DNA of 41,102 bases from a virus, in the UHGV virus genome UHGV-0210063, one strand, 5' to 3'. How positions within the stretch are numbered: position 1 is the first letter of the stretch; the number at the start of each line of letters is the position of its first letter. The translations under genes were made by a program, and so were the position numbers. This document shows, in pieces, positions 1 to 41,102 of this stretch. The notes below the pieces were generated by a model, which was given only the letters and a program-made list of their open reading frames with translations, made no database searches and had not been told where the DNA came from.

Positions 1-135
1 ATCAATCGTTTGTTCACATTTCCAAAAAAAAAGTTTTCGAACCTGCGGCGATGTGAGGAAGGGTCAGGCGGCGGTACTGAGCAGCCAGGGTTGCAGAGAT
101 TTGACCCGCCCCTCCCCTACAGATGGGAACTGTTA

Positions 136-486
136 TCAATTGATGCGTTCGCGCGCTGTTTTTGCTTTATGACAGGGCCAGCACAGACTCTGCAGGTTAC
201 TGTCTGCATCTGTGCCACCATGAGCTTTCGGAATGATGTGGTCCACAGTTCTGGCTTCAACGGCTCTCCCATTGCGCAGGCAGTTCTGACACAGATGATT
301 ATCACGCTTCAGTATGCGCGCACGTATGGCATCCCATTTCGAGCCATAGCCACGCTGGTGGCGGCTCAGTCCGCGTTGATGCTGTACCCATCCTTCGCCA
401 CGATGTTTATCGCAGTAACCAGAACTGTCTGTGGTTGTACCTGCACATCCACGCTTACGGCAGGCGCGTGGGATTCGTGATGGCAT
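136..486 (-). CDS. HNH endonuclease (packaging-associated, HK97 gp74-like)
   Basis: 116 aa with Cys pairs and HNH motif (VDHIIPKAHGG...SNLQSLCWPCH); sits next to terminase across the genome end. Confidence 0.8.
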   Translation of the reverse strand: MPSRIPRACRKRGCAGTTTDSSGYCDKHRGEGWVQHQRGLSRHQRGYGSKWDAIRARILKRDNHLCQNCLRNGRAVEARTVDHIIPKAHGGTDADSNLQSLCWPCHKAKTARERIN

Positions 487-493
487 AAATACC

Positions 494-694
494 TCACACC
501 CTGTTCAGTTGAATGACGGGCTGATTCTCGATATGTTCTGCTGTCAGTCTGAAAGTCACAGTGACTGTTGGTGGCTCGCCTCCGCGTGACTCTGTCCTGG
601 CGGAAAGCTGCCCTTCCAGTAACTCACCATCAACTGCAATCCCATACCCTGCGAAATGTTTACCACGATACAGTTTAGCGACCTGAAACTTCAT
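494..694 (-). CDS. Hypothetical protein (66 aa)
   Basis: Intact ORF immediately upstream of HNH on the same strand; no recognisable motif. Confidence 0.4.
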   Translation of the reverse strand: MKFQVAKLYRGKHFAGYGIAVDGELLEGQLSARTESRGGEPPTVTVTFRLTAEHIENQPVIQLNRV

Positions 695-938
695 AACTCT
701 TCCTTTTAGACATGTTAGACGTGAACCTGTCGCACGGCAGAGTCGCCGAAAGTTTACGGTTTACCCAGGCTCACAGCTGAAAGCCTTTCTTAGATGTGCA
801 CATGCGATATGCTTTGAATGAATTATTAAAAACTTTACTCTTTTTCAAAATTTCGTATCCTGGCTCGTTAATGTTAAAGAATTAAACGTAAGAAAGTAGT
901 ATGTTGAATCGCTTATATCAAAATACATAGGACTCAAA

Positions 939-1424
939 ATGCCAGAACTCGTTGATCCAACAGACTCATTAATTAGTTTTCAATACGCCTTTTCTAATGG
1001 TCTGATTAAGCCTTCACCATGCATAGTTCACCCAAATATGAAGGTGCTTTTGGATGATGCAGAGGGTACACCACGGTTTACTTATGCATTCTTTGAAGGA
1101 GAAAATGTTAAAGGTGTTGCTATATATGTCCCTGCAGAGTTTGTTGAAGGTAAACCATGCTTTGGCGTTGGCTATGCAGTAGCCGATGAATATAAAGCGC
1201 AAGGCATCGGTACTCAACTTCTCATCGCCAGCATTGAAGAAATGCAATACGGATTTAGAAATTCCTTCAATGAATTCTATGTAGAGGCTATTGTCGGGGT
1301 TGGTAATCAAGCCTCCAACAAATTAGCTGCAAAAGTTTTATCTGATACTCCTGAGCCAGGGACAGATTCTTACTCAGGAAAACCTATCAATCAGTACATG
1401 AAACTTTTCAAAACCACAAAATAA
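939..1424 (+). CDS. GNAT-family N-acetyltransferase (moron)
   Basis: 161 aa; motif-A-like KAQGIGTQLL and motif-B-like NQASNKLAAKV; AGGA ribosome-binding site before ATG; AT-rich; opposite strand to late genes, between Rz and HNH. Confidence 0.6.
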   Translation: MPELVDPTDSLISFQYAFSNGLIKPSPCIVHPNMKVLLDDAEGTPRFTYAFFEGENVKGVAIYVPAEFVEGKPCFGVGYAVADEYKAQGIGTQLLIASIEEMQYGFRNSFNEFYVEAIVGVGNQASNKLAAKVLSDTPEPGTDSYSGKPINQYMKLFKTTK

Positions 1425-1435
1425 CTACCATTCTG

Positions 1436-1461
1436 GCGCAGATTTTTGCGCCTTTTCAGGT
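1436..1461 (+). terminator. Rho-independent terminator after GNAT gene
   Basis: Hairpin GGCGCA-gattttt-TGCGCC followed by TTTTCAGGTTT. Confidence 0.55.
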
Positions 1462-1602
1462 TTGCAGTTCACCTGCCACGCTTTGTTATGCGCCTGAATG
1501 TCCCGCTTCGTCTGTTGCATTATCATAAGTAATAGCGTAGGTTGACACCTTGGCTCTCTTTCGCCACCGGCGAATCTTTAGCGGATTATCCTTGGCCGTT
1601 TT

Positions 1603-2070
1603 TTATCTGAGACATTGCTCACGAATATATAGCTGTGCCCCTTCCAGTTGCTTCTGCATCGTCATCAACCGTTCTCTGAGGGTGAAATAATCCCGTTCAG
1701 CGGTGTCTGCCAGTCGGGGGCTGGTTGCATTATCCACGCTGGTGGGTCCGGTGGCTTCACGCACGGCTGCGGAGCAACTGGCATTGACCCGCAGGCGCTT
1801 ACGACCAGCGGCAACATCAGCGCGCAGAGTTTCATTTTCAGCTTTCGCATTGGCTAATTCTCTCGAGTACTTTGCATCGAGCGCAGCAACATCACGCTGA
1901 CGCTGTTGCATGTCAGCGATGGTGGCAGTCGCCTGCTTCAGCTCACTGACTTTTTTATCACGCTGTTCTTTGTAGGCGATGGCGTTATCACGGTAATGAT
2001 TGACCGCCCACGACAGGCAGACGATGGTGCAGATAACCAGAGTATAAATAATCGCTGCGACTCTGCTCAC
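1603..2070 (-). CDS. Rz: Spanin inner-membrane subunit Rz
   Basis: Close match to lambda Rz ([19 protein letters not shown]...[14 protein letters not shown]); probable GTG start overlapping endolysin stop; ORF track extends to 2085 with a TTG start. Confidence 0.85.
1665..1850 (-). CDS. Rz1: Spanin outer-membrane lipoprotein Rz1, embedded in Rz in another frame
   Basis: 61 aa, [20 protein letters not shown] lipobox, proline-rich, ends [12 protein letters not shown] as in lambda Rz1. Confidence 0.85.
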
Positions 2071-2600
2071 TGATCTATCCCCCAACAGGCTAATGCGCTT
2101 TCCTGGTCACGACGAATAACCTGTCCATAGCAGTTATTTGAACGTATGCGGCAATCGCGCCCACCATCTTTTATCCACCAGCGAATCGCCTCGCATGCGC
2201 CCTTACGATCACCGGCATTCAGCCGCTTATAAAACGTCGACGGGAAACACTTACCGGGGCCAATGTTATAGGGACAGAATGACGCTATACCCGCTTTCTG
2301 TGGTTCGGTCAGTGGTACTTTAATATTGCGCTCTACCCATGCCAGCGCCTTATCACGTTCAATAGCGTTAACCTGGTCGCATTTTTCCTTCGACAGCTTC
2401 ATTCCCGGTATGACGGGCTTACCATCCACCATTGTGGCACCCCGACAGATGGTCCAGATGCCGGCCCCATCGCGGTATGCCGTTGTGTGGTTACCTTCTT
2501 TTTCATCCAGAAACTGGTCGAGAATATCAGGCGCGGGCGCACCGACGGCAATCAGTGCCAGAACGGCAGCCGACAGGCCGTATCTGATTTTTGCGTTCAT
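2067..2600 (-). CDS. Endolysin, GH24 lysozyme with N-terminal SAR (signal-anchor-release) segment
   Basis: 177 aa; hydrophobic N-terminus [14 protein letters not shown] then lysozyme-like core; position between holin and Rz. Confidence 0.8.
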
Positions 2601-2663
2601 GGATATTTATCAGGATTTATCGGTTTCTGCCCACGGACAGGTTTATCTGTTCCGGTCAGTGAC

Positions 2664-3014
2664 TTAAGGTTGTGATTCCGGAGGAGTCTTCAGAGAACCA
2701 GTAATTCTTCCTGGTAGCTTTCCTTTGTAGGTTATCCACACATTCTGCGCATCTAAAATTACGGGGCGCTTTTCCGGCGGCTGCTCATCCCCTTCACATA
2801 ACCCGGCAGCAACATCCAGGAAGACCTGTCTGATGCTCCTTCTGGCTGCTGCCTCATAAAACTCCAGCGCGGCACCTTCAACACGGTCCAGCGAGATGTC
2901 CAGGTCAAAAATTTCACCGTCAAAGCGTTTTTTGTCCCGTAACGCTAAAGTTACCGTAACTTTATTCTCAAAATTGCGGATCCCTTTCACAATCAGTTCA
3001 TAGTTTTGAGTCAT
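2664..3014 (-). CDS. Hypothetical protein (116 aa) inserted between holin and endolysin
   Basis: Intact ORF tightly packed in the lysis cassette; acidic, no transmembrane segment, no recognisable motif. Confidence 0.5.
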   Translation of the reverse strand: MTQNYELIVKGIRNFENKVTVTLALRDKKRFDGEIFDLDISLDRVEGAALEFYEAAARRSIRQVFLDVAAGLCEGDEQPPEKRPVILDAQNVWITYKGKLPGRITGSLKTPPESQP

Positions 3015-3018
3015 TGAA

Positions 3019-3234
3019 TTACTCTCCCCGTGCAGCCTTACGCTTGTCTTCTCTGATTTTGAAGTACAGATTTGTCAGATAAGTCAGGAAGCCCAGAACC
3101 AGACTCCCCAGTACACCAATCGCAGCCCACTGTGAAGGACTGACCTGATCAAGCCACTGTAAAAACCAGTAGCCAGCACTGCCTGCGGAGGTGCCGTAGG
3201 CAATGCCCGTTGAAATTTTGTCCATGGATTTCAT
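3019..3234 (-). CDS. S: Class II holin (S21-type pinholin) with dual start
   Basis: 71 aa [30 protein letters not shown]...; near-identical to phage 21 S; two Met codons at positions 1 and 4. Confidence 0.9.
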
Positions 3235-3300
3235 AGCCTCACCTCCGCAAATAACGGATGGCGTAGTTTTACACTGAGAAATGAAAGGGATTTGAAAAGA

Positions 3301-3325
3301 AAAACCCGCAAAAGCGGGCGAAACG
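3301..3325 (-). terminator. Rho-independent terminator between tRNA array and holin
   Basis: Minus-strand hairpin CCCGC-TTTT-GCGGG followed by T-run. Confidence 0.5.
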
Positions 3326-3526
3326 ATATATACAGAAAGGAAAGCACTCTATCCAACAAACCACCCACAGTTAATCGGAATAAAAGCAGAGTGCTTATGA
3401 ATGATCGCCTGCTCGAAGGTTAGTATTTCTGCACAGCAATTTTGCAAAAAAAGGCGATCATTCATAACTTAAACGTCTTTCAGTCACTCCGGGATTTCCC
3501 ATCATCGCAGACTGAAAGACTCTAAC

Positions 3527-3601
<75 letters not shown>

Positions 3602-3604
3602 ATA

Positions 3605-3680
<76 letters not shown>

Positions 3681-3716
3681 ATCAAGTAGCGCGCATTCTA
3701 ATCGCGTGGCCGAAAT

Positions 3717-3801
<85 letters not shown>

Positions 3802-3809
3802 GGACTTGA

Positions 3810-3885
<76 letters not shown>

Positions 3886-3887
3886 AC

Positions 3888-3964
3888 TGGACCGCCACCG
3901 GGGACTCGAACCTCGCACACTCAACTTAAAGGGTTGACGCTCTTTCCTGATGAGCTAGTGGCGG
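3888..3964 (-). tRNA. Atypical tRNA-like gene, anticodon loop CCUUUAA (UUU anticodon, C at position 33)
   Basis: 77 nt; perfect 7-bp acceptor stem C1-G72, D-arm with GG, 5-bp anticodon stem, TTCGAGT T-loop, CCA; non-canonical C33 and one T-stem mismatch. Confidence 0.5.
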
Positions 3965-3965
3965 C

Positions 3966-4041
3966 TGGTGGCCCTTGCTGGATTTGAACCAGCGACCTGG
4001 CGATTATGAGTCGCTCGCTCTCACCACTGAGCTAAAGGGCC
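3966..4041 (-). tRNA. tRNA-Ile2 (anticodon CAU, ileX-like; elongator Met not excluded)
   Basis: 76 nt; closely resembles E. coli ileX as recalled, anticodon loop CUCAUAA. Confidence 0.8.
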
Positions 4042-4235: not shown

Positions 4236-4931
4236 TCAATCTACTTTTGCAACACTTTGCTTTGAAAATGCCGCCTTTTGTTTTGAACGTGTTCTCATTA
4301 CAAACAATAAAGCCTCACTATCAAGTCGGTGAAAAATGTGTTTCATTGCAACCCAGTGACGAGTAAATGTTTTGGACCAGTTTTTAGTTGTCACTCCCGC
4401 CAGTAATGCCAGCTCCTGGTATTCATAACCTTCCCCACCAAAAAGTTCTGCTTTTACTGCCTGCGCCGCCAGCCAGATTAATTTTTTCAGGCGTTCCTGC
4501 GTTTTCCCTGCAATTTTTCTGGTACCGGATTGAGTATTAAATTCATTCCACGCCCACTGTGTTATCGCGATCTGATATTCCCAACAAATACTCCCGCTGT
4601 AACACCACAACAACCAGGCTTTATGATGTTCTTCAAGAGACAGAACAGCCCGCCGCCACGATGATGTCGAAAACTCAACCGGACTGACCAGAGGAATTGA
4701 CGTCCCCTTCGCCAGCGATTGCTTTCCCGGGATTGGTGGATTATCCCGCGTTATCATTTTTCCAGTCACTTCATCGCGGTACCGGATTTTTTTTCGCCTG
4801 TAACGCCCTGTATCGAACATGGCATTCTCTTGCCAGGCTTCAAGCTGACCTTTTGTTGCCCCACTCAAATCAGCGGTGGCGATAATGAGCTGCTCACGCA
4901 CAAACTGTAAATACTGGTTATTCATGCGCAC
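4236..4931 (-). CDS. Putative late-gene antiterminator (Q-like), assigned by position
   Basis: 231-aa ORF between rusA and the tR'-like terminator/tRNAs/lysis genes; no zinc-finger motif recognised. Confidence 0.35.
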   Translation of the reverse strand: MRMNNQYLQFVREQLIIATADLSGATKGQLEAWQENAMFDTGRYRRKKIRYRDEVTGKMITRDNPPIPGKQSLAKGTSIPLVSPVEFSTSSWRRAVLSLEEHHKAWLLWCYSGSICWEYQIAITQWAWNEFNTQSGTRKIAGKTQERLKKLIWLAAQAVKAELFGGEGYEYQELALLAGVTTKNWSKTFTRHWVAMKHIFHRLDSEALLFVMRTRSKQKAAFSKQSVAKVD

Positions 4932-6919: not shown

Positions 6920-7312
6920 CTACTGCCCTGTTTTAACGAAGTTTTTAAAGGAAACAACTGCCTGATAGGGGTTTGGTTGACAGCCAAACATATTATCGCA
7001 AAAAGGCTTGATGAAAATTCTTGAGGATCCATCTTCATTTGGCATTTTACTCACTTGATAAGCGAGGAATGGACTATTTGGAGAGGGATTATAAGTGGAA
7101 ATTAGCGTGTCTGTCGCCGTTTGAATTTTCCATGAGGAATTATTAGCCAACCAGAATTGCGCTCGTTTCCAATAAAAGTCACATTGCTTTTCATCATTAC
7201 ATGTTAGTGGCTTCATTGCTTCTGCTTTCAACGCTGGATCGACCTTTGCTGCACACCCTCCCAACATTACTGTTGCAATCATTACACCTGCGACTAAAAC
7301 AAGTTTCTTCAT
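6920..7312 (-). CDS. Lipoprotein, function unknown (moron)
   Basis: 130 aa; signal peptide MKKLVLVAGVMIATVMLGGC with lipobox; about 41% GC by eye; flanked by hairpin terminators. Confidence 0.7.
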   Translation of the reverse strand: MKKLVLVAGVMIATVMLGGCAAKVDPALKAEAMKPLTCNDEKQCDFYWKRAQFWLANNSSWKIQTATDTLISTYNPSPNSPFLAYQVSKMPNEDGSSRIFIKPFCDNMFGCQPNPYQAVVSFKNFVKTGQ

Positions 7313-7455
7313 CTCCCTGCCCCATCAATAAAAGTTCGGTTCTCTAATAACTAGAGTTAATCAACGGAAAAAACGCCGAAGCGGGTTAAGTGCGGGTGCG
7401 TTGAGGATGCCTGACACATCAGAGGTGGCGAGGGATTTCTCCCCCGCCAGGTCTC

Positions 7456-7611
7456 TTACTCCTCAGGTTCGTAAGCTGTGAAGACAGCGACCTCCGTCTG
7501 GCCGGTTCGGATTCGTACCTCGCAGAGGTCTTTCCTCGTTACCAGTGCCGTCACAATGACGGTTAAACAGATGACGATCAGGGCGATTAACATCGCCTTT
7601 TGCTGCTTCAT
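7456..7611 (-). CDS. hokD: Hok/Gef-family type I toxin (HokD/RelF-like)
   Basis: 51 aa MKQQKAMLIALIVICLTVIVTALVTRKDLCEVRIRTGQTEVAVFTAYEPEE, recalled as matching E. coli HokD; ORF track gives an in-frame upstream extension to 7668. Confidence 0.8.
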   Translation of the reverse strand: MKQQKAMLIALIVICLTVIVTALVTRKDLCEVRIRTGQTEVAVFTAYEPEE

Positions 7612-7902
7612 AGCCTGCTTCTCCTTGCCTTTCGGCACGTAAGAGGCTAACCTAGATTTGCCGTTCATAGATTGAGCCTCAGATTAATGTTAAGCGTCTT
7701 GCAGGACGCGTAATGTTAACTGGGGCTTTTCTCTATCTGCCTTTTGGTGTTCATGCCTGAGACAGATAGCCTCAAGCACCCGCTGCAATTCTACTTAACT
7801 CTCCTTTTCCCGCAAACCGTTTTTATCCCCAGCGGCAAATCGAATACACCACCAGCGCCACAGCCATTGCGATTCCTGCCGTTGTAAATGCCTCAGGCCA
7901 GG

Positions 7903-8418
7903 TCATCGTAAAACATCCTCCACGCTTATCAGTCCATTTCGTTTCAGGTAATCCATCGCCATCTCCGGTAATTTGCAGTCTAGATTAGCTTTTTTCAGTT
8001 GACTGACCAGTCGTTTAACCCACATTGTTAATTCGCCAACCTGATTACTGGATGCTAGTGGATTGTCGGCTTTACCCAGAATGACAGCACAGCAGGCCTC
8101 TTTGAGTACCCAATCAACAGCATCTTTCCATGCTCCTGTTTCGACTGGTGGATTCTCACGCTTTACCTGTTCATAAAAGCGCACGGCTTTAACCAGTCCT
8201 TCTGATATCACAGGGACTGGCGGGGTAGTGAATAAGGCCTGAATCTCATAGCCCGGCCTGTCGTTGCACCCCTCTTTTGTCGGTACATATTTCCAGTCAC
8301 CAACCCACATCTTCTCCTGAAAGTCCGTAACGCCTTTTTTCACGTAGCGATATCGCCATGCAACTGGTTTTGCCTGCCCTGCCGTTTCATGCCCTTCCTG
8401 ATAATTAATCTCGCTCAT
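7903..8418 (-). CDS. Hypothetical nin-region protein (171 aa)
   Basis: Intact ORF with translationally coupled neighbours (ATGA overlaps). Confidence 0.5.
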   Translation of the reverse strand: MSEINYQEGHETAGQAKPVAWRYRYVKKGVTDFQEKMWVGDWKYVPTKEGCNDRPGYEIQALFTTPPVPVISEGLVKAVRFYEQVKRENPPVETGAWKDAVDWVLKEACCAVILGKADNPLASSNQVGELTMWVKRLVSQLKKANLDCKLPEMAMDYLKRNGLISVEDVLR

Positions 8419-10878: not shown

Positions 10879-11304
10879 TCAATGCACTGCCACAGCATTT
10901 CCTGCCGGGCCACCACGGTTCATCTGATTGAAACCGGCGATTGCCACTGCGACAAAATCATCGGCGTCTCTCACCAGTCGCTCCCGCGTCTCCACCAGCT
11001 CCCGAAAATAAGCTGAACTGTGGCTACGCATTCTGGCCACCAGCAAAGGTGGCATTGCCTTTTCGATCGCTGGTAACAACGCCTGAATTTTTTCAACTGC
11101 ATCAGGGGTGTCTTTCTCTACCCAGCGGAAAATTTTCTGGGTATTGCGAGCCAGGGCTTCCGGATGGCTGTCGTCGTACAGTTCAGGAAACGTCATACCC
11201 AACTCAAAATAAGCCTGGGTTATTCCAGCTGCCGGAACTTTTTCGCCATCAGGACGCGCCCAGGCATTCATCGCCATGCGGATGTGTTCATGCTTGATTT
11301 TCAT
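10879..11304 (-). CDS. YdaT-like protein (CII-like regulator of Rac-type prophages)
   Basis: 141 aa from internal Met (MKIKHEHIRMAMNAWARPDGEK...); directly follows the cro-like gene. Confidence 0.55.
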   Translation of the reverse strand: MKIKHEHIRMAMNAWARPDGEKVPAAGITQAYFELGMTFPELYDDSHPEALARNTQKIFRWVEKDTPDAVEKIQALLPAIEKAMPPLLVARMRSHSSAYFRELVETRERLVRDADDFVAVAIAGFNQMNRGGPAGNAVAVH

Positions 11305-11530
11305 GAATCCCCCCTTGGTTAGAAGGCGGATTATGATCAGAACCGGGAATGACAACCGTCGGTATGTGTAACTCATATTTGAGCGCCCCGGCAGTGACTG
11401 CCTGAATTAGCAACGCCCATTTCCACGGAACCTCTTCCCCCCACATGCTGACTGTGGTTTTTGACGTTCCTAGAGCTGCGGCTGTTTTAACAACTCCGCC
11501 AAAATAGCCTAATACTTCTGATTTTTTCAT
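11288..11530 (-). CDS. Cro-like / YdaS-like HTH regulator
   Basis: 80 aa MKKSEVLGYFGGVVKTAAALGTSKTTVSMW...; GGAG ribosome-binding site; divergent from cI. Confidence 0.65.
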   Translation of the reverse strand: MKKSEVLGYFGGVVKTAAALGTSKTTVSMWGEEVPWKWALLIQAVTAGALKYELHIPTVVIPGSDHNPPSNQGGIHENQA

Positions 11531-11621
11531 GAGTCGCTCCATAAAACTGAACGCCAAAAGTTTAATAATCAAAACCAAAGAAAGTCAAGAAACAAAACCA
11601 TCTGTGTTTTAAAATCAAAAC

Positions 11622-12260
11622 ATGAGCAAGCAAACAATATCTGAACGCATAACCCAACGTATGCATGCGCTAAACCTGAAAGGCAAAGACCTTGTCAATG
11701 CCACTGGCGCATCAAAAGGCTCCGTAAGTCAATGGATGAACGGTGGAGGAGCGCCGTCCTCGCGTTACATAAGTTCACTGGCAAAAATATTGAAAGTAAA
11801 CGAAAATTGGCTTCTTAATGGAGGAGAGTTAAATACAGGTGATTCGCTTGATCTATCTTTACCGCCGATAAAAACGGTTCCGCTACTATCACTTCAGCAG
11901 GCAGCAAGCTGGAGTGATTATATGAAAAATTCCTCAATAACCTCTTGTGTGCAGCTTGTCGGAGAAATCCCGGCCAATACCTTTGCAGTTGTTCTAGAGA
12001 GTGACAGTATGTCAACATCTGGTGGGGGAGTTTCCATCCCAAATGGTTCAACAGTTTTTGTTGATCCCGATCGAACCGTACAACCAGGAAATATTGTCCT
12101 TGCCTTACCCAAAGGGACCACAACACCTGTCATTCGTAAACTGGAGATAGAAGGGCCGGATATTCTTTTAGTCCCCACGAATCCTCGCTACCCTTCAATT
12201 ATGCTGGATGATCTATCTTGCATATTGGGCGTATGCTTTAAAATTCAACAAGATATTTAA
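11622..12260 (+). CDS. CI-like repressor (HTH plus S24 LexA-type peptidase domain)
   Basis: 212 aa; N-terminal HTH (GASKGSVSQWMNGG) and C-terminal domain; divergent from cro-like gene. Confidence 0.8.
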   Translation: MSKQTISERITQRMHALNLKGKDLVNATGASKGSVSQWMNGGGAPSSRYISSLAKILKVNENWLLNGGELNTGDSLDLSLPPIKTVPLLSLQQAASWSDYMKNSSITSCVQLVGEIPANTFAVVLESDSMSTSGGGVSIPNGSTVFVDPDRTVQPGNIVLALPKGTTTPVIRKLEIEGPDILLVPTNPRYPSIMLDDLSCILGVCFKIQQDI

Positions 12261-13988: not shown

Positions 13989-14041
13989 TTTCTGGTGACG
14001 TTTGGCGGTATCAGTTTTACTCCGTGACTGCTCTGCCGCCC
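13989..14041 (+). ncRNA. dicF: DicF small RNA (ftsZ-targeting sRNA)
   Basis: 53-nt UUUCUGGUGACGUUUGGCGGUAUCAGUUUUACUCCGUGACUGCUCUGCCGCCC followed by T-run; matches recalled E. coli DicF. Confidence 0.85.
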
Positions 14042-38848: not shown

Positions 38849-40606
38849 TTAAAGCGAGCGGATGCCCACGCTGACCAGATGTTCAGACAGATCCAGCTCC
38901 GGTTCACCACCATTGACCAGCATCCGGCTCATTGCTGTAAACATCGCAACAGGGCCGTCGATTTTGGCTTCCTGCGTGGATTTATTCGGGAAGATATTGT
39001 CGTTTTTGTCCGGTTTTACCGTAACGTTAGACATCATCCAGTTCATGACCGGATGATTGCTGTGATGGAAACGCCCGGCATAGACCAGTGATTCCGTTTC
39101 CTTCATGGCCTCTGACAGATTGCGAACCGTCTGCGGAACCTCCACCAGCGGTATCCCTTCTTCAGCCAGTGCCAGGCTGAACTGCATCGCGCTCCACGGG
39201 TCAAATCCCAGTTCCCTGAGGTTTTCACCACCAATCCATTCCAGTAAGTCACTTTTTATCTGAGCATGATCGATAACATCACCATCCGTCAGAATCAGCT
39301 TATCCATCTCCGCCCACTTCCGGTAAAGTTCTGCCTGCTGCCGCGAGCATCGTTCCAGCCGTCCTTCCGGAAGCCAGAATTTAAAATCGGCATGAACATG
39401 CCCGTTATCCGTTCGCCAGAGTTTTGCCGCCGCACAGATATCAATCTTATGAGCAAGGTCAACGCCGACCCACATGGGATACGTTTTCAGCTCATGTCGT
39501 GGGGCAATGTATTCGCACTTCTCCCACTTAATCATGTCCATCCAGGCAGACTCTGCTGTTACCCACACATTCATGTGTTTGGTAAAAAAATTCACCCGCG
39601 CAGAGACCTGTTCTTTCGCTTTTTTCGCCAGGCGACGCAGATCATCCCAGCGTTTACAGATGCCCAAGCCGGGATTCGCTTTCTGCCAGACCGTTTCATC
39701 AAACGGATCATCTCCCTCATCGAGGGTGTAAATAATCGCAAAGTAGGAGTCGTCTTTTACCGCGCCCTCCACGTCGCTGTTATAGCCACGCAATACCTTG
39801 ATGGCGTAATCACGCTGCTCGTAACAAATCCCTTCCTTGTTAAACCCTGCCGTGGTGATACCAAATAAAAGGGACTGCAGACGGGCACCGGTTGCCGTTT
39901 CCAGAACGTCCCACACGTCACGGGTTTTATGTGCATGCAGCTCATCAATAATGGCGCAGTGGATGTTCAGACCATCTAGGTTGTTTGCATCCGAAGAAAG
40001 CGGTTCAAATTTTGATGCGCTCTGCTCCTGGTAAATCGCCAGCTTGTTGAAATCAAACAACCGCCCGAGTGTCGACCGGGCTTTTCTGACCATATTTTTG
40101 GCGTCTTCAAACACGATTCTGGCCTGGTCACGCGTGGTTGCGGCTGAATACACCTCAGCTCCGCCTTCACCATCTGCCCCCGTCATATACAGGCCGATAC
40201 CCGATGACAGAGTTGATTTTGCGTTTTTACGGGCGACTTCGTTGTACGCCGTCCGGAACCGGCGCACCATCACCGGACGTCCGCTGCCATCGCTGCGCAT
40301 GACAACTTCCCCGGTCTCTTCATTGACCAGCGGAATGACAAAACCAAAAATATTAATGAGGATAAATACATGCCAGTCCATCAACTCAATGGGCTGGCCT
40401 GCCAGCGCCCCTTTTACATGAGGCACAAATTTGTAGAAATTCAGGATGTGCTGCGCACGGGGTTCACTGAAATAAATCCCCCGCTCTTCGCCGTACTTCA
40501 GATCATCAAGAAAACGCTGGCAGGCCAGGCGGACAAATTCGCCAGCAACAATTTCTCCTGCAACAACACGTTCGGCGTAGCGGATCCCGTCAGCCACTTT
40601 TGCCAT
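38849..40606 (-). CDS. Terminase large subunit
   Basis: 585 aa; ATPase and nuclease regions; position after terS. Confidence 0.9.
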
Positions 40607-41088
40607 CAGTCTCTCGCTTTTAAAAGCTCCGCCAGCGGATCAACATCATCCGGTCCGGCGATATTTACTTTAGCCCGGCTTGCCGGTGACATACCAAACT
40701 CTGCAAGCATTGCCCGGATCCGCTTCCAGGCATCCGCTTTCATTGCCGCCGCGGGGTGCGCCTTAATCAGTACATCACCGCTCTGCGTTTCCGTGCGGTA
40801 GGTATACCCCTCAACATCGAGTGTTTCGCAGTGATGCCGATATTCGGTGTAGGCTTCCACCAGCAACTCGAGCGCACGCGCATCAAGCTGAGAAATGATC
40901 CCTTCCGCATTCAGCTCTTCCGCCATTCGCCTGAACCAGTACTTCCCCTGAGCCCCTAAATGCTGCGGAATTTTAGGAAGACCTTTTTCATCCTTTTTAG
41001 CGGTTTTTTTGTGGTCTTTAACGGGGCGCTTTGAGGGGTTGCCTCGAATCAAATGCAGGCGTGGCGGGGTTTTCGGAGGTCCTGACAT
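40606..41088 (-). CDS. Terminase small subunit
   Basis: 160 aa basic N-terminus; immediately upstream of and overlapping terL. Confidence 0.8.
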   Translation of the reverse strand: MSGPPKTPPRLHLIRGNPSKRPVKDHKKTAKKDEKGLPKIPQHLGAQGKYWFRRMAEELNAEGIISQLDARALELLVEAYTEYRHHCETLDVEGYTYRTETQSGDVLIKAHPAAAMKADAWKRIRAMLAEFGMSPASRAKVNIAGPDDVDPLAELLKARD

Positions 41089-41102
41089 AATCGGTCTTAC
41101 CT

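Follow-up and report, generated by a model that had tools for sequence, protein, structure and literature searches.

Does a hokD-like toxin gene carried by a phage, with no relBE genes beside it, lack the controls of its family, or does it bring a control region of its own? The locus considered here lies in the virus genome UHGV-0210063, which was analysed as one stretch of 41,102 nucleotides (the window). A preliminary description, made from the letters and their open reading frames, had recognised a Hok/Gef toxin in the nin region, called it an orphan for want of relBE, pointed to a small hydrophobic peptide upstream, and left undecided whether a mok/sok antisense control region accompanies it.

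The gene order of the window runs CI-like repressor, Cro, YdaT-like and replication genes, DUF977, the hok region, DUF968, RusA, Q and tRNAs. Given that hok lies between the replication genes and the DUF968, RusA and Q genes of a lambdoid phage, the term nin region is correct. Over positions 7300..8000 the DNA is 100% identical to that of a prophage of E. coli EC21GDE043. Relative to this prophage the window is circularly permuted (1..3681, 40234..41102); position 41102 is directly followed there by position 1 (41633/41632), which gives the 41.1-kb window the look of an entire temperate phage genome closed into a circle. The phage carries a P27-type terminase. A full-length DicF small RNA is encoded at 13990..14041 (+) (Rfam RF00039, 76.7 bits), and the homologous part of a related prophage carries dicB, ydfC and ydfB, indicating a Qin/Rac-like early-left region. 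Six tRNA genes (3530..4041, -) lie just downstream of Q, four being present in the otherwise 99-100% identical EC21GDE043 prophage; given that the blastn alignment to this prophage also breaks between window positions 3681 and 3809, the tRNA array varies in copy number.

Hok/Gef proteins are small membrane toxins of about 50 amino acids with one transmembrane helix and a TRK-LCE-R motif. The 51-codon reading frame of the window belongs to this family; it scores 82.9 bits against Pfam HOK_GEF (PF01848, cutoff 22), matches PHROG 251 'MokW-like host killing' with an E value of 2.8e-33, and the columns it holds invariant with Hok of plasmid R1 include T25, R26, K27, L29, C30 and E31. Residue for residue it encodes HokD of E. 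coli K-12, in line with the preliminary description, and one RefSeq protein, WP_000813254.1, is common to K-12 hokD and the EC21GDE043 gene. The Tyr47 codon TAC is followed by G (7473..7470), keeping the UACG context of the A-to-I site at which TadA editing of hokD mRNA has been reported (PMC12214031). Sequences of this kind are common. A 701-nt query matches 4957 of 5426 complete E. coli genomes, at a median of 2 places and a maximum of 11 per genome, as well as 107 phage records, and Hok has been catalogued in 3852 prophages and 2501 phages, with enrichment in prophages (2026 preprint, bioRxiv 10.1101/2025.08.07.668861).

The absence of relBE is real. With K-12 RelB and RelE as tblastn queries the best E value anywhere in the window is 0.5, and the relBE-hokD (relBEF) arrangement is not found here; what lies upstream of hok is a canonical leader, not relE. 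Loss of relBE by deletion in this phage was considered and rejected, as the canonical leader occupies the position and is common to many phages.

Alignment to hok/sok loci and RNA folding locate mok, the sok promoter, tac, fbi and a ucb-like box (Table 1). The full mok/sok control region lies in 7611..7781, with a matching fbi 3' of hok, and because the antisense control region is fully present, the label orphan is wrong. A sok-like promoter, the lack of which had been put forward, together with a lack of toxicity, as the mark of an inert remnant, is there on the plus strand. In accordance, 7781..7606 matches the Rfam model RF01794 ('sok') from end to end (1-157 of 157), with 112.4 bits (gathering score 59) and an E value of 6e-25. 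Since the match falls on the hok-sense strand, what the model describes is the leader of the hok mRNA and the Sok target in it; Sok corresponds to the reverse complement of a part of this region. All of these elements are present and conserved, and their pairings are predicted by folding. The RefSeq entry for the identical prophage labels hokD only, omitting mok, sok and the 27-codon reading frame upstream, and annotation pipelines thus under-describe the locus.

Table 1. Positions of the hok/mok/sok elements and of neighbouring genes in the window.
Feature	Position	Strand	Details
Q	4236..4931	-	
Weak terminator-like hairpin and U6	7368..7385	-	CCCGCUUCGGCGUUUUUU; from alignment with K-12 and other loci
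Predicted full-length hok mRNA	7368..7781	-	about 400-414 nt; begins with tac and ends in the U-run past fbi
fbi (fold-back inhibition)	7394..7406	-	CCUCAACGCACCC; mRNA nt 376-388
hok (hokD allele)	7456..7611	-	51 codons and stop; 51-aa membrane toxin
mok reading frame	7456..7668	-	70 codons, ATG at 7668, in frame with hok, same stop codon (ORF listing)
Shine-Dalgarno of hok	7621..7625	-	AGGAG; read from the sequence
sok promoter	7625..7653	+	-35 TTGCCT (7625..7630), 17-nt spacer, -10 TAACCT (7648..7653)
Sok-target hairpin	7643..7680	-	mRNA nt 102-139; holds SDmok (GAGG, 7680..7677) and the mok AUG
Sok antisense RNA (predicted)	7660..7730	+	71 nt: 14-nt single-stranded 5' tail (GCCGUUCAUAGAUU), long hairpin, UUUU
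ucb-like box	7722..7728	-	AAGCCCC; mRNA nt 54-60; tac partner after 3' end removal
tac (translational activator)	7769..7781	-	GGGUGCUUGAGGC; 5' end of the mRNA
Predicted hok mRNA promoter	7788..7816	-	-35 TTTGCG (7816..7811, 3/6), 17-nt spacer, -10 TAGAAT (7793..7788, 5/6)
27-codon hydrophobic ORF	7823..7906	-	MTWPEAFTTAGIAMAVALVVYSICRWG; neighbour, outside the hok module
Cro	11288..11578	-	
CI-like S24 repressor	11622..12260	+	

The 5' end of the hok mRNA was set by position 1 of RF01794 and by alignment to 933W and R1-type loci. Read from the sequence, the -10 element of the predicted hok promoter ends 6 nt before this start at 7781, and across hok subfamilies a -10-like hexamer (TAGAAT, TATAAT, TACAAT, TAAGAT or TATGAT) stands 6-7 nt upstream of a GG(G)YGCUUGAGG start; in the loci that share its position, the DNA farther upstream is unrelated. 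A simple consensus scan for promoters (sigma-70) and terminators, applied to 7250..8000, returned nothing above threshold. Given that both promoters score 7-8 of 12 and that the Sok terminator is a bulged hairpin, the empty result reflects the limit of the scan and does not speak for absence, the sok promoter having been defined experimentally in a homologue.

The predicted mRNA (7781..7366) folds with a minimum free energy of -162.5 kcal/mol (z = -5.95), a value reached by 0 of 100 shuffled sequences. In the full-length fold tac (nt 1-12, GGGUGCUUGAGG) is paired with fbi, as expected of these two elements, and the hok Shine-Dalgarno sequence is paired inside a local hairpin. The tac-fbi duplex has an energy of -21.5 kcal/mol, matched by 0 of 300 shuffles. 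When the 5' 13 nt were searched for duplexes with the 3' region in 80 hok loci of other genomes, the pairing lay 340-385 nt downstream of the 5' end in most of the loci retaining the tac motif, and it was missing from this position in a few loci with a diverged 3' flank. An earlier form of the search, which allowed G-U pairs and a bulge, was replaced by this energy-based one, its shuffled controls having matched as often as the real sequences. The two partners covary, GGGUGC:GCACCC in hokD and hokC types, GGCGC:GCGCC in R1 types and GGGCGC:GCGCCC in Pantoea, indicating selection on RNA structure across the hok family.

When the mRNA is truncated in silico at nt 374, 368 or 362, tac is predicted to switch to nt 54-60, a helix that is also part of the RF01794 consensus structure. 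The box so paired is one we take to be the ucb of the R1 literature. The refolding after removal of fbi matches the folding pathway reported for R1 by Gerdes, Franch and Gultyaev. In the truncated fold the predicted Sok-target hairpin forms; it corresponds to the third hairpin of the Rfam consensus, and the loop at its tip is complementary to the bases with which Sok starts. Checked by eye, the predicted target loop has no obvious YUNR U-turn motif.

At the 3' end, the hairpin that follows fbi is weakened. A GG-to-TT change relative to the usual CCCGCUUCGGCGGGUUUUU cuts its stem to 3 bp, so that only (((....))) is predicted, and the true 3' end of the hok mRNA is therefore uncertain. Directly downstream of hok lies a gene for a 130-aa predicted lipoprotein (6920..7312, -; MKKLVLVAGVMIATVMLGGC...), a member of phrog_16082 (function unknown) with a faint N-terminal resemblance to Cor (E 0.007) and a moron-like appearance. 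Because the hok terminator is weak, this gene may be reached by read-through from hok.

The coordinates of Sok and mok were transferred from the annotation of 933W through alignment. The sok promoter, including -35, spacer and -10, is base-for-base identical to the sokW promoter of 933W and Sp5. In Sp5, Takada et al. (PMC8621323) replaced the sokW -10 (TAGGTTA on the other strand) by means of primers YO-421/YO-422, and the resulting 'pro-less' hokW-sokW construct lost its antitoxin activity and became toxic. The Sok RNA predicted for the window has what a Sok RNA calls for, namely a promoter, a free tail and a terminator hairpin. It folds with -30.0 kcal/mol and leaves its 5' tail free (z = -5.75 for 7660..7735). 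The hairpin is worth -26.8 kcal/mol when formed by Sok and -18.0 when formed by the mRNA, a difference of 9 kcal/mol that arises because G-U pairs of Sok become A-C mismatches in the mRNA.

Variability was followed along 52 distinct mRNAs of the hokD/W type; because tac and fbi served to select this set, their invariance within it is uninformative. The sok promoter, the Shine-Dalgarno sequences and the coding region are near-invariant. A peak of variability falls at mRNA nt 111-130 (7671..7652), at the mok start and the Sok 5' tail, where the mean entropy is 0.93 compared with less than 0.2 over most of the locus. Compared with SokW, the Sok of the window is changed at 6 of its first 12 nt, and its remaining 49 nt show identity at 48 positions. 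The divergence of the tail from SokW suggests that antitoxin recognition may be allele-specific, and the variable stretch suggests that specificity may have diversified among prophage copies residing in the same cell.

The preliminary description also noted a small hydrophobic reading frame upstream of hok, at about 7820..7903. It exists, offset by 3 nt, at 7906..7823 on the minus strand; any tie to hok does not hold, as many phages carry it with no hok downstream, its start in every case overlapping the stop codon of the gene before. Its ATG overlaps the stop codon (ATGA) of the preceding gene, which here encodes a 171-aa phrog_660 protein. A tblastn search finds it in 88 phage records, and with a degenerate DNA pattern for the first seven codons it is seen in at least 120 viral-contig stretches. 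Among the matches listed, nearly all keep a 27-codon frame ending in ...VYSICRWG; hok follows within 400 nt in only about 45%. The consensus is MTWPEAFTTVGIAMAVALVVYSICRWG, mostly unannotated, and neither Pfam nor PHROGs assigns the peptide to a family. Over codons 8-27, pN/pS is 0.35 in frame as against 1.0 and 1.2 in the other frames (54 distinct nucleotide versions). Further copies stand beside xis/int in VT1-Sakai and behind ea22/eaA-like genes in PhiR12_1, and a Vequintavirinae phage has one too. Most likely, judging from these patterns, it is a genuine gene for a small membrane protein, translationally coupled to an upstream gene family of the ea22/eaA/phrog_660 type with which it travels. 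It is not part of hok/sok.

Taken together, the locus is in all probability an intact hok/mok/sok type I toxin-antitoxin module, made of a hokD toxin allele and a complete regulatory leader, and closely related to hokW-sokW of the Stx phages 933W and Sp5. Its transcription, processing, toxicity and biological role would be those of its homologues. By this analogy, a weak constitutive promoter would give rise to a hok mRNA of about 400 nt, in which pairing of tac (7781..7769) with fbi (7406..7394) would keep the full-length RNA closed to ribosomes and to Sok. Slow trimming of the 3' end would remove fbi, upon which the 5' end would re-pair with 7728..7722 and a hairpin would present the mok ribosome binding site and start codon. 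In a lysogen the 71-nt Sok would bind this target hairpin through its free 5' tail, blocking translation of mok and hence of the coupled hok, and the duplex would be degraded. Should Sok cease to be supplied, because the prophage is induced or the element is lost, the pool of stable mRNA would be translated and Hok would damage the inner membrane. To judge by hokW-sokW, what the phage gains is likely to be help with lysis and release on induction; stabilisation of the prophage is a possibility as a second pay-off.

Could the same module serve chiefly for something other than lysis, either prophage addiction through post-segregational killing or abortive infection against superinfecting lytic phages? 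The hok/sok system of R1 stabilises plasmids and lowers the plating of T4, as summarised in PMC8621323, type I toxin-antitoxin systems have been implicated in prophage maintenance (bioRxiv 10.1101/2025.08.07.668861), and the 933W record carries the annotation 'prophage maintenance'. Yet the only direct experiment on a prophage copy, in Sp5, found two-fold more phage release and RecA-dependent Hok on induction (PMC8621323), and hok is not enriched near defence systems (bioRxiv 10.1101/2025.08.07.668861). We regard a chief role in addiction or defence as possible and worth keeping in view, though not as the expected outcome; addiction, defence and lysis are, moreover, not mutually exclusive.

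How Sok supply might cease on induction may be read from the setting of the module. hok has the same orientation as the early operon from Cro to Q, and no terminator-like site was found between hok and the genes upstream. We put forward, tentatively and with more doubt than belief, that on induction early transcription reads through the locus, runs head-on into the weak sok promoter and silences Sok; the resulting 5'-extended hok transcripts would carry tac away from a free 5' end, and the hypervariability of the Sok tail would prevent cross-silencing among co-resident modules. If true, read-through would explain mechanistically the RecA-dependent loss of SokW and appearance of HokW in Sp5, a point that the authors of that work left open.

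The reading frame upstream of hok has the features of mok, its SDmok GAGG lying 8 nt upstream of the ATG, inside the Sok target. Because it is in frame with hok here, unlike in R1, the mechanism of coupling may differ in detail. The active product might even be a 70-aa in-frame Mok-Hok fusion instead of the 51-aa Hok, Sok then controlling one long reading frame with no translational coupling; the mok ATG at 7668 is in frame, the stop codon is shared with hok, and the same layout is found in 933W and in hokC-type loci. Several observations make this improbable, however. A strong AGGAG Shine-Dalgarno sequence precedes the hok ATG at the correct spacing and is kept even in the K-12 copy, which has no mok; the 51-aa HokW is toxic by itself; and the N-terminal codons of mok are the most variable part of the locus, a pattern that fits selection on the RNA and not on the peptide.

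That the locus is an inert remnant, complete in appearance but unexpressed or non-toxic and hitch-hiking on the phage like several chromosomal hok loci, is very improbable, since every regulatory element is conserved and the blocks of low variability are the functional elements, the toxin frame is unbroken and encodes exactly HokD, hokW-sokW with its 91.6% identity is toxic and under the control of Sok (PMC8621323), and the tac-fbi covariation indicates family-wide selection on RNA structure, even though the promoters are sub-consensus and the terminator weakened, most K-12 hok loci are considered inactivated (PMC12214031), and intact chromosomal hokA, hokB and hokC are reported, in work cited by a preprint (bioRxiv 10.1101/2025.08.07.668861), to cause no post-segregational killing.

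The locus is thus an ordinary, complete copy of an already known module carried by many lambdoid phages of E. coli, and it alters nothing already known of hok/sok biology. Its closest characterised relative is the hokW-mokW-sokW locus of 933W and Sp5 (VT2-Sakai), which has the same gene order, in-frame mok, Sok hairpin, tac and fbi. The 933W record, which annotates mokW, hokW and a SokW antisense RNA, is 91.6% identical to the window over 7906..7384 (523 nt). Both are carried by lambdoid phages and both are preceded by the 27-codon reading frame. HokW is 92% identical to the window Hok and differs in four C-terminal residues (TAYEPEE against VDYESEK), and the N-terminus of mok differs as well (MNGKS against MLNTC). 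The 933W locus lies near attR, past the late genes, whereas that of the window lies in the nin region; 3' of fbi the two sequences are unrelated, and 933W lacks the post-fbi hairpin yet is functional. hokW-sokW is a functional type I system, toxic and controlled by Sok (PMC8621323), and toxicity of Hok, neutralisation by Sok and differential stability of the two RNAs would extend to the window by this homology. Because the Sok tail and the mok N-terminus differ from those of SokW and MokW, the findings from Sp5 carry over to the window as those of a homologue, not of an identical locus.

The hok/sok (parB) locus of plasmid R1 is built in the same way: tac and fbi mark its ends, mok precedes hok, and Sok is a cis-encoded antisense RNA. 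In both loci the Sok promoter overlaps the hok Shine-Dalgarno region, and the same refolding is predicted after 3' trimming. The toxins, in contrast, are only 43% identical, mok is out of frame with hok in R1 and in frame in the window, as it is in hokC-type loci, and the hokD/W group has, relative to R1, a 16-nt insertion that forms an extra stem in the leader and Sok hairpin. The tac and fbi ends pair as GGGUGC:GCACCC in the window and as GGCGC:GCGCC in R1, and the carrier is a phage in the one case and a plasmid in the other. Identical or nearly identical copies of E. coli or R1-type hok were also seen in assemblies labelled Veillonella, Acinetobacter, Xanthomonas, Ferruginibacter, Streptomyces and Oscillibacter; most likely these represent contaminating enterobacterial or plasmid DNA.

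The third comparison, with hokD (relF) of the K-12 Qin prophage, returns to the question of relBE. The toxin, Shine-Dalgarno sequence, coding region, 3' untranslated region and fbi are shared, with 98% identity over window positions 7625..7368. Homology to the window locus, however, starts only 17 nt upstream of the hok ATG, and the K-12 copy, which follows relE with a different leader, lacks the hok promoter, tac, ucb, mok and sok. In K-12, relF/hokD is co-transcribed with relBE (PMC3598666), and every hok gene but hokB is inactivated, through either IS elements or rearrangements in which canonical components were lost (PMC12214031). A leader of the K-12 relE-hokD type, about 75 nt long (ATGACATCTCTG...CACTTCTGCTTTGCGTTGACAGGAG), is also found upstream of R1-like hok genes in Escherichia sp. 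ESNIH1 and in Pseudescherichia, with no relE-like reading frame immediately upstream; from its recurrence, it may represent an alternative type of hok leader, conserved and Sok-less, rather than the debris of a rearrangement. To call the phage gene an orphan without relBE therefore reverses the logic, as it is the K-12 copy that is without the canonical components: the phage-borne hokD is the complete, canonical form, and the textbook relBE-hokD of K-12 is the form that lacks the canonical controls.
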